46,547 nucleotides of DNA, from IMG/VR virus record IMGVR_UViG_3300032167_000209, positions 1 through 46,547 of that record. One strand, given 5' to 3'. Below the pieces are notes generated by a model. The model did no database searches, had not been told where the DNA came from, and saw nothing but the letters and a program-made list of their open reading frames with translations. The position numbers and the translations under genes are program-made. This DNA comes from a virus. Shown piece by piece: positions 3,646 through 4,959 of this stretch. Every line of letters begins with the position of its first letter. The stretch's first letter is position 1.

Positions 3646-4353
3646 TTATTCTGATTTACAATGAGCAACACGTTTACTAGCCTTTTCAAAATATTCTTTA
3701 TCAATTTCGCATCCAATAAAATTTCTACCAGTATTATAAGCCGCCAATCCAGTAGTACAACTGCCGGCAAAACAATCTAATACAGTATCTCCCTCATTAG
3801 AATGCTTTTTAATTAATTCTTCCATAAAAGCTAGTGGCTTTTGAGTAGGATGAAATCTTCCTTTATCTTGACAAATAGAATAAAAATATATTCCATTATC
3901 ATATGAACTATGGAAAGTAGGCTTAGAAACTTTAATAGCAGAAACAGCTACTTCTCGTGCATTTGTCAGATAGTTAATTTTACTATTAATTGGAACAGGG
4001 TTGGTTTTTACCCATTCAATAAATCTCACTTGTTTAAATTTATTGTTATCATATAAATTTTTAAGTGATTCAATTTTCCAAAGGTCATAAAAACAAATCA
4101 TAGTTCCACCAGGACGAAGAATTCGATATCCTTCTTTAACAACAATATCTAATCCTGAAAAATTCTTATCCCATTCACCAAAATCCATAGAAATTCTAAA
4201 TCTATCTGTATCTCTTCCAGTTTCTTCTCCTGACTAAAAATTAGTAGGACGAGAAATTTCATAAGGAGGGTCAATTAGAATTAAATCTATTGAATTAGTT
4301 GGAATTTTAGGTAAAAAATCAAAACAAGATTCATTTTTAAAATCAAAAATCAT
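3646..4353 (-). CDS. DNA methyltransferase (N6-adenine/N4-cytosine, beta-class, PF01555-like)
   Basis: LILIDPPYEI (motif IV) near the N-terminus and HPTQKP...VLDCFAGSCTTGLAA (motif I) in the C-terminal half; ATG at 4351-4353 with GTGAGGAAGAG Shine-Dalgarno; one in-frame TAG (TNF-Q-SGEE) joins the upstream part to track ORF 3646..4188; TAA stop. Confidence 0.8.
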
Positions 4354-4365
4354 ATTTACTCTTCC

Positions 4366-4959
4366 TCACTTTTTAATAAAATTTGCTGAAATAGTGCGAT
4401 TAAATAATTGAGGGTCATACCAATAACAGCCTTGGCAAGTAGGAGAGTTTTCATCACCTTCAATAAAATCTACACTATATCCTAAAATAGATGCCTTAAA
4501 ACGGCATCCAGATGCATTACATTTTTTACAATGCTCTCTTTTTGCATCATTAACGCTTTTTGTTAATGGTTGAAAATCATTTTCTTGATAATAATCATTG
4601 TCATATTTACCATTTTTATGGTCAATTTCCATATCGCTAGTAACTACACCAAGTACAGCACAAGGTTTATTTTTTAAAGAATTTTTAACACTTATTGGAA
4701 TATTATGATTTTCAATAGTTTCTCTAAAACCTTGGACTTGAATTGCTACTGTTTTATTGCCTTTACCGCCTAAATCATTAGCATGAAAACGAGTTAAGTT
4801 ATATTTTTTATCCAGTTTAGAGCCTTTTCTAGCCCATTGACAGCCGTTATTAGATTTAAATTTTTCTCCATATTTTTCAATTAAATCATTAATAAAAATA
4901 ATATCACTAAAACCATTTTCATCAACATAATTTTTAATAAAAATATCACAAGCATTCAT
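4366..4959 (-). CDS. HNH-motif endonuclease-like protein, possible restriction partner of the adjacent methyltransferase
   Basis: 197-aa ORF, Shine-Dalgarno GAAAGGAAAAG, TGA stop overlapping the methyltransferase Shine-Dalgarno; DMEIDHKNGKYDNDY...N...KREHCKKC resembles a His-Me finger/HNH core; directly downstream of promoter P3. Confidence 0.5.
   Translation of the reverse strand: MNACDIFIKNYVDENGFSDIIFINDLIEKYGEKFKSNNGCQWARKGSKLDKKYNLTRFHANDLGGKGNKTVAIQVQGFRETIENHNIPISVKNSLKNKPCAVLGVVTSDMEIDHKNGKYDNDYYQENDFQPLTKSVNDAKREHCKKCNASGCRFKASILGYSVDFIEGDENSPTCQGCYWYDPQLFNRTISANFIKK

Follow-up and report, generated by a model that had tools for sequence, protein, structure and literature searches.

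A conserved TAG asymmetry in a phage restriction–modification operon points to a probable genetic-code switch between restriction and modification

How can a phage afford an operon in which a restriction endonuclease comes first and its antidote, a DNA methyltransferase, can be completed only when a stop codon is suppressed? The question is raised by a two-gene restriction–modification (R-M) cassette in a 46,547-nt stretch of IMGVR_UViG_3300032167_000209 (the window, whose positions serve as coordinates throughout), from a large phage of around 185 kb that reads TAG as glutamine. On the minus strand, an endonuclease gene, R, with no in-frame TAG is followed directly by a methyltransferase gene, M, with a TAG at codon 40; a preliminary description had placed both open reading frames (ORFs) here, and reading the sequence directly found every descriptive detail of it accurate. 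The components, a type II R-M system of the NlaIII/IceA1 family and a phage using genetic code 15, are each known; what is new is their combination. We lean towards reading the cassette as a code-switch gate, in which restriction would act first and modification would follow once the suppressor tRNA works. The cassette contains the following features, all on the minus strand.

4366–4959, minus strand: R, a 197-aa HNH restriction endonuclease of the IceA1/NlaIII family (Pfam ICEA, PF05315)
4426–4632, minus strand: HNH (beta-beta-alpha-Me) core and Cys4 zinc site of R, M110-EIDHKNG...NDAKREHCKKC (C144, C147) and CQGC (C175, C178)
4354–4368, minus strand: R-M junction, read directly from the sequence, with the R stop TGA inside the Shine-Dalgarno-like, purine-rich GTGAGGAAGAG
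3646–4353, minus strand: M, a 235-aa beta-class DNA methyltransferase of N6-adenine type (Pfam N6_N4_Mtase), full length only with TAG read-through
4261–4272, minus strand: motif IV of M, DPPY, residues 28–31, invariant in our alignment A1
4234–4236, minus strand: in-frame TAG at M codon 40, read as Gln; the residue is Q in 25 of 26 homologues
3748–3771, minus strand: motif I of M, FAGSCTTG, residues 195–202, for AdoMet binding, with F195, G197 and T200 invariant in A1

R runs through 197 uninterrupted codons to a TGA at 4366–4368, and its seven glutamine codons are all CAA. It matches Pfam ICEA over residues 12–189 of 197 (E = 9e-27, 94.5 bits against a cut-off of 24) and carries the conserved D-H, the N and the zinc-binding cysteines of the HNH core, so that the His-Me finger/HNH-like core reported for it is borne out and the concern that catalytic HNH residues might be lacking is removed. 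We retrieved 118 homologues, and the ratio of nonsynonymous to synonymous substitution rates (dN/dS) of R, 0.2–0.46, marks it as constrained. No homologue was found in 50,697 GenBank phage records, in PHROGs or in PADLOC, plasmids gave a single weak match and NCBIfam holds no model that matches R.

The 235-codon frame of M is interrupted solely by the TAG at codon 40. Its protein matches Pfam N6_N4_Mtase (PF01555; E = 2.6e-36, 126 bits against a cut-off of 26.7), the PADLOC model MTase_II (2e-49) and, over its full length, a profile of the solved adenine methyltransferases 5HEK and 5HFJ (232–240 aa; E = 2.8e-42). Motif IV lies N-terminal to motif I, the order of the beta class to which the preliminary description had assigned M on the same two motifs, and the DPPY in place of SPPY, together with the adenine-methylase relatives, suggests N6-adenine as the base that M would modify. 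ORF calling under the standard code divides the gene into a 39-aa and a 180-aa piece. The 39-aa piece, which is what termination at the TAG would leave, retains DPPY only, as had been predicted from the loss of motif I, and the 180-aa piece lacks DPPY. Strong purifying selection acts across the whole gene, the greater part of which is downstream of the TAG (dN/dS 0.04–0.17), the split gene is seen again in five further contigs of the window phage from several metagenome samples, and further TAG codons in the M genes of relatives fall at the conserved Gln columns 108 and 171. The statement that M needs TAG suppression and R does not is confirmed, and recoded phages conserve this trait of the cassette.

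The two genes belong together. Because the R stop sits inside GTGAGGAAGAG, the Shine-Dalgarno sequence within which it had been described, 12 nt before the ATG of M (4353), we take them to be translationally coupled. A bacterial scan at one genome per species gave 459 loci encoding relatives of R; among the best 80 of these, in which pairing was counted, an M orthologue directly adjoins R on the same strand in 50, with R 36–46% and M 45–70% identical. The alternative that M belongs to an orphan family with no link to such pairs is thereby set aside. Pfam scans of neighbouring genes did not show which methylase partners R in the bacterial loci without an M orthologue. The phage clade, defined as loci whose R is at least 50% identical to that of the window, shows the adjacency in all 30 loci, with junctions of −11 to +14 nt throughout. 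On family assignment and adjacency, R and M are a genuine type II R-M pair, and the earlier reading of the locus as a compact pair of this type is supported. The order differs between the two groups: M precedes R in 50 of 50 bacterial pairs, and R precedes M in 30 of 30 phage-clade loci. This reversal was probably one ancestral event, kept since.

That TAG is a sense codon here is supported by several observations. Treating TAG as sense lifts ORF coverage of the window from 0.81 under code 11 to 0.94 and lengthens the mean ORF from 246 to 339 aa; the same treatment of TGA brings no gain. TAG makes up around 11% of the Gln-type codons in the window, which also encodes a suppressor tRNA.

20243–20317, minus strand: suppressor tRNA, anticodon CUA, whose acceptor end is of Gln type (U1, G2, G3, G73), found by ARAGORN and by the Rfam tRNA model (43.5 bits)

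The acceptor end of this tRNA, UGGGGA...CCCC-N-GCCA, is common to the tRNA-Gln(UUG) of the window (U1, G2, G3, G73), from which we infer that it is charged with glutamine. With TAG at Gln columns, a Gln-like tRNA(CUA) and recovery of coding density, the window phage is a code 15 phage; use of this code in phages has been validated by metaproteomics (PMC9523058). When 25 kb of the window were compared with GenBank phages by megablast, only a tRNA matched, so no relative of the phage has been deposited there.

The window alone would make little of the difference between the genes: the probability that R, with seven Gln codons, would carry no TAG is approximately 0.44–0.55, within chance. We therefore gathered related cassettes from metagenomes, IMG/VR and contig look-ups, giving 13 distinct recoded lineages with an intact R that is 53–100% identical to that of the window. 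The idea that most relatives lack TAG in M was rejected: many 'full-length' M proteins in the databases came from gene predictions that had rendered TAG as Gln beforehand. TAG usage among Gln-type codons in this sample, with background genes from the same loci, is as follows.

R, whole gene, 13 lineages: TAG at 0 of 110 (0%)
M, codons 1–41, 13 lineages: TAG at 15 of 21 (71%)
M, rest of the gene, 13 lineages: TAG at 4 of 57 (7%)
Background genes, all codons: TAG at 145 of 979 (15%)
Background genes, codons 1–41: TAG at 34 of 126 (27%)

R is depleted of TAG relative to background (p = 1e-7), and the start of M is enriched relative both to the rest of M (p = 3e-8) and to background N-termini (p = 2e-4); counted across all of M, TAG stands at 19 of 78 Gln-type codons, compared with 145 of 979 in background genes. 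At least one TAG lies in the first 40 codons of M in 12 of the 13 lineages, as against 28% of background genes (binomial 2e-6 if the lineages are independent). Codon 40 itself is TAG in nine of the 13 and also in L170, a lineage with a null R, making ten diverged lineages in all. The neighbouring codons for Pro, Arg, Thr and Gly change freely at their synonymous sites, and pairwise dS, measured for seven lineages, is saturated at 0.8–2. Where TAG40 is missing, three of the four lineages have a TAG at codon 3/4, 14/15 or 16, and the fourth, L175, has none. In relatives on the standard code, where genes can be seen to end at TAG, M codon 40 is CAA or CAG. A conservative count gives at least seven independent gains of TAG in M and none in R; since more than half of the Gln codons of the pair lie in R, seven gains all falling in M would have a probability of approximately 0.45^7 = 0.004. 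Taken over the 13 lineages, these codon counts place the asymmetry far beyond chance, and the split of TAG between R and M is apparently conserved and selected.

A milder N-terminal excess is seen outside the cassette: across all non-R/M genes of the window and of L007, L152, L161, L163, L166 and L168, TAG makes up 27% of Gln-type codons in codons 1–41 and 13% of those further on. Start codons placed too far upstream may explain part of this excess; another possibility is that 5′-proximal gating is widespread in these phages.

Some relatives have lost R, the usual route by which R-M systems decay. Short R proteins in the databases were considered as TAG-interrupted nucleases and rejected as such, as they carry TAA nonsense codons and are null alleles: TAA stands at codon 130 in L170 and L171 and at codon 131 in L172, and the remaining 66–67 codons are intact. 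These two changes are independent and fall at adjacent positions just before the HNH helix, beside a conserved M. The TAG of M is absent next to the null R of L172, which has CAA at codon 40, and present next to that of L170. Further short or internally deleted R proteins occur in the database (P0095, P0104, P0109 and P0112).

The conserved TAG split and the reversed gene order point to an R-M system whose order of action would be set by a switch of genetic code. In a freshly infected cell using the standard code, R would be completed and M would terminate after 39 residues. R, with its probable site CATG, would then cut unmethylated host DNA, the DNA of co-infecting or competitor phages, or both, with no methylase competing. 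The incoming genome would be safe, having been methylated in the previous host and being strongly depleted of CATG. As the suppressor tRNA accumulated, TAG would be read as Gln and full-length M would appear, to methylate progeny genomes before packaging. The gate would be the codon itself, which would divide two genes of one mRNA by time or condition without separate control of transcription. The preliminary description had seen that making the endonuclease before its methylase would be suicidal for a classic R-M system unless the target were host or competitor DNA, or expression were staged. With an N-terminal TAG in M, a TAG-free R and the order reversed, this escape clause now appears to be the best-supported reading. 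The broader proposition is that recoding serves as a timer within a single R-M operon, that a defence has been turned into a weapon of attack on host or rival DNA, and that an N-terminal recoded stop is a selected translational gate separating co-transcribed genes; this we put forward tentatively, as a little short of an even call.

The probable site follows from the family to which R belongs: Helicobacter iceA1 is reported, in a secondary account that cites Xu et al. 2002, to be a functional isoschizomer of NlaIII with the recognition site CATG (PMC2816704). Ureaplasma UpaP162 has a CATG system with a blunt-cutting NlaIII neoschizomer and a differently annotated methylase, which is of no help in assigning the specificity of R (PMC6191088). 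CATG occurs 11 times in the window, compared with 107 expected (observed/expected 0.10), and all phage carriers of the cassette that we examined give 0.10–0.58. A search for depletion of short palindromes had been proposed as a check on the R-M reading, and it found CATG, AGCT and GATC all depleted: over the whole window, AGCT occurs 10 times against 123 expected and GATC 15 times against 112, avoidance as strong as that of CATG. The avoidance of AGCT is peculiar to the window phage, with relatives at around 0.6–1.3 observed/expected. Two insertions that look recent account for ten of the 11 CATG sites; apart from positions 25000–28600 and an AT-rich island at 3.8–5.2 kb, a single CATG and not one AGCT occur in the window. 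The stretch 25000–28600, with tail-fibre-like genes (four of five ORFs end in TGA), has most of both kinds of site, seven of 11 for CATG and eight of 10 for AGCT, and looks like a recently acquired module whose restriction sites have yet to be purged.

How R, M and the suppressor tRNA are transcribed bears on whether a delay is plausible. A consensus promoter of the host, sigma-70 type (TTGATT, 17 nt, TGATATAAT) lies directly upstream of R and is an exact match to a family of six near-identical copies in the window, where zero matches would be expected by chance; the family consensus is TTGATTTTT-N3-AAAAAA-N-ATGATATAAT. The copies, identified by motif match, are these.

4991–5019, minus strand: R-M promoter, directly upstream of R
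3607–3635, minus strand: second copy, directly after the M stop, bounding the cassette and driving the next gene
20419–20447, minus strand: zero-mismatch copy approximately 100 nt upstream of the suppressor tRNA
224–252, minus strand: family copy
8402–8430, minus strand: family copy
21400–21428, minus strand: family copy

Together they stand ahead of the R-M operon, a gene resembling the major vault protein (MVP), one homing-endonuclease-like gene and two clusters of tRNA genes, of which one includes the suppressor tRNA. The motif is found in relatives, including the standard-code L008, and lies upstream of R in L161, L163 (a weaker match), L168, L008 and L091. Copies of the promoter may also act as recombination points for exchange of the cassette.

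Several points weigh against the code-switch gate. The suppressor tRNA has the promoter type of the R-M operon, in the zero-mismatch copy at 20419–20447, so any delay must come from accumulation of the tRNA and competition with release factor 1, and could be short. L175 (5001–6317), recoded and with an intact R, has an M without any TAG, the sole exception, and shared ancestry of the lineages means that the p-values above overstate their independence. Freedom from TAG is not specific to the nuclease, because the neighbouring MVP-like and DUF2828 genes are also TAG-free, and a homing-endonuclease-like gene behind the same type of promoter carries four TAG codons, so that promoter class does not predict TAG content. 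As to the target, family membership is the sole basis for assigning CATG to R, and depletion of CATG partly reflects general host restriction pressure, because AGCT and GATC are equally depleted. If hosts are already methylated at CATG, as many may be given the CATG avoidance of these phages, R would spare host DNA, and the main benefits of the pair would be anti-restriction by M and exclusion of rival phages. More generally, the site specificity, the methylated base, the timing and the target of the R-M pair are all inferred.

The shared promoter type keeps alive an explanation by dosage instead of timing, in which incomplete read-through at the early TAG would permanently lower the ratio of M to R and make restriction stricter throughout infection. 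An N-terminal TAG in M and none in R fits this as well as it fits timing, and a promoter type common to the suppressor tRNA and the R-M operon argues against a long delay. Late suppression must nevertheless be efficient, as structural genes of relatives contain up to 12 TAG codons, so that one TAG would lower M only slightly; and the M of one relative has five, at which persistently poor suppression would nearly abolish the enzyme. We judge a pure dosage effect unlikely, though worth keeping in view.

A little less probable again is that the pattern has no regulatory meaning, TAG being one of three Gln codons and its distribution over M and R a product of drift and shared ancestry. The window-only probability of 0.44–0.55 for a TAG-free R would allow this, and so would the TAG-free M of the recoded L175; moreover, TAG reaches CAA only in two steps, one of them via a lethal TAA, so that mutational trapping could retain a TAG once gained. 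What drift accommodates poorly is the distribution across lineages, with 0 of 110 codons in R against a 15% background and a share of 71% at the N-terminus of M where the remainder of M has 7% and background N-termini have 27%, the alternative N-terminal TAG in three of the four lineages without TAG40, and the retention of these codons despite saturated dS and freely varying synonymous sites nearby.

Improbable, in our view, is a code lock, by which the cassette, lethal in a standard-code cell without the phage tRNA, would block its own capture by hosts and standard-code phages and tie the phage to its tRNA. Such a cell would indeed make R alone, and no cassette of the recoded type was seen among the bacterial genomes, where all pairs run M then R and lack TAG. 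However, the standard-code phage relatives L008 and L174 carry an R-then-M cassette without TAG, showing that the cassette moves or persists across codes; the phage needs the tRNA in any case, for the many structural genes that contain TAG, and a selective benefit to the phage is not evident. Finally, the idea that M is a dead gene ended by a true stop and R a stand-alone nuclease or toxin, suggested by the 39-aa and 180-aa pieces that standard-code gene callers give, has next to no chance of being right and was rejected, because the TAG stands at a conserved Gln column, a tRNA(CUA) is present, coding density favours TAG as sense, purifying selection after the TAG is strong (dN/dS 0.04–0.17), the split gene repeats across contigs, and TAG40 is kept in ten diverged lineages in a frame that is otherwise intact.

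The cassette lies in an AT-rich island (GC 0.27–0.29, compared with 0.42–0.43 in the large neighbours) between the MVP-like and DUF2828/DUF7788 genes, flanked by homing-endonuclease-like paralogues.

5916–8366, minus strand: MVP-like gene, 816 aa (Pfam MVP_shoulder, 1e-22, and Vault_3)
5020–5862, minus strand: homing-endonuclease-like gene on the upstream flank (phrog_559, 2.5e-33; phrog_9084 'homing endonuclease', 1.7e-23), with a DUF2726-like C-terminus
2741–3493, minus strand: paralogous homing-endonuclease-like gene on the downstream flank, with four in-frame TAG codons and a single frame only if TAG is sense
1137–2693, minus strand: DUF2828/DUF7788 gene, 518 aa (phrog_850 'RNA-binding protein', 4e-129)

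Related contigs of 134–225 kb repeat this neighbourhood, with the R-M pair beside the DUF2828 gene and often the MVP-like gene as well, so the pair is an old resident of the phage family and not a recent arrival. Every Gln in the MVP-like and DUF2828/DUF7788 genes (27 and 15 codons) is encoded by CAG, never by CAA or TAG, and their GC of 0.42–0.43 stands out against a genome in which most windows fall below 0.40. The C-terminus of 2741–3493, IEYDGEQHF, resembles those of 5020–5862 and of a third gene at 284–1057. These three homing-endonuclease-like paralogues, all on the minus strand, share Cys-rich repeats and a DUF2726-like IEFDGEQHF nuclease end; 284–1057 and 5020–5862 match phrog_559 and phrog_9084, and two of the three have no TAG and one has four.

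Between the promoter at 3607–3635 and the downstream homing-endonuclease-like gene, the leader at 3494–3606 (minus strand) can form two strong hairpins, CCCCTCTTG...CAAGAGGG and ATGGGCG...CGCCCAT, which have no Rfam match. A permissive Rfam search of the cassette and of the surroundings of the suppressor tRNA for ribozymes and similar RNA elements returned only tRNAs and chance-level matches. A 134-nt tRNA-like gene at 19958–20091 (minus strand) with an insertion of approximately 60 nt, which Rfam detects only at a permissive threshold (42 bits, E = 4e-7) and ARAGORN misses, may be an intron-containing tRNA. A further tRNA at 21264–21348 (minus strand), called Thr(UGU) by ARAGORN, is unusually long for a tRNA-Thr at 85 nt, which suggests either a long extra arm or a miscalled anticodon.

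How does the cassette compare with systems already described? NlaIII and HpyI (iceA1-hpyIM), type IIP systems with the site CATG, resemble it in joining a small HNH nuclease with, like R, a Pfam ICEA (PF05315) endonuclease domain to an adjacent cognate adenine methylase, and we take iceA1 to lie upstream of hpyIM. The system in the window differs in being carried by a phage whose genome is recoded, in the proposed TAG gate of M and in having a 235-aa beta-class M of the 5HEK/5HFJ type, and its R is at best 45% identical to bacterial homologues; M.NlaIII and M.HpyI presumably belong to another methylase class. M shares its size and motif order with 5HEK and 5HFJ ('adenine specific DNA methyltransferase (DpnA)', 232–240 aa), although specificity is not transferable at such similarity, and we know of no partnership between the 5HEK/5HFJ enzymes and NlaIII-type nucleases. 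The bacterial M-then-R systems of rumen and gut Firmicutes, Alphaproteobacteria, Chloroflexota and others use the same two protein families, adjacent on one strand; they differ from the phage clade in their uniform order, in using the standard code and in having no in-frame TAG.

A precedent in principle is the proposal by Borges et al., for alternatively coded phages, that lysis genes and the homing endonuclease of an intron are held back by recoded stops (10.1101/2021.08.26.457843). Here as there, genes free of recoded stops would be translated at once and genes enriched in them would await the suppressor, and the start of M shows enrichment of the Borges type over synonymous codons (15 of 21 compared with 34 of 126, p = 2e-4). 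Methyltransferases and restriction enzymes have zero occurrences in that report (10.1101/2021.08.26.457843), and the present split differs in falling between two coupled genes of one operon, where the product held back is the antidote and not the harmful one. The R-M systems of chloroviruses such as PBCV-1 also have adjacent virus-encoded genes, an endonuclease that acts on host DNA before the methylase, and methylated viral DNA (PMC7019647); these viruses package restriction endonucleases without methyltransferases, and host DNA is degraded within minutes (PMC7019647). In chloroviruses, which infect eukaryotic algal hosts, R comes first by virion packaging, whereas in the window phage it would do so by a recoded codon.

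Why should some phages use a code that differs from that of their hosts? The prevailing proposal, in which recoded stops set the timing of late genes, is based on enrichment patterns in lysis and structural genes. An R-M cassette offers a sharper test, as its genes are coupled on one mRNA and have opposite, predictable needs, those of a harmful nuclease and of its antidote, and here the codon pattern divides exactly between R and M and is kept across diverged lineages. Annotation under the standard code fragments, and so hides, functional phage methylases of this kind. Recoding as a timer becomes directly testable with two small genes and a readout of DNA cleavage against protection. If the proposal is true, this R-M system would be the first to take its order of action from the genetic code and not from a controller protein, promoter strength or virion packaging.

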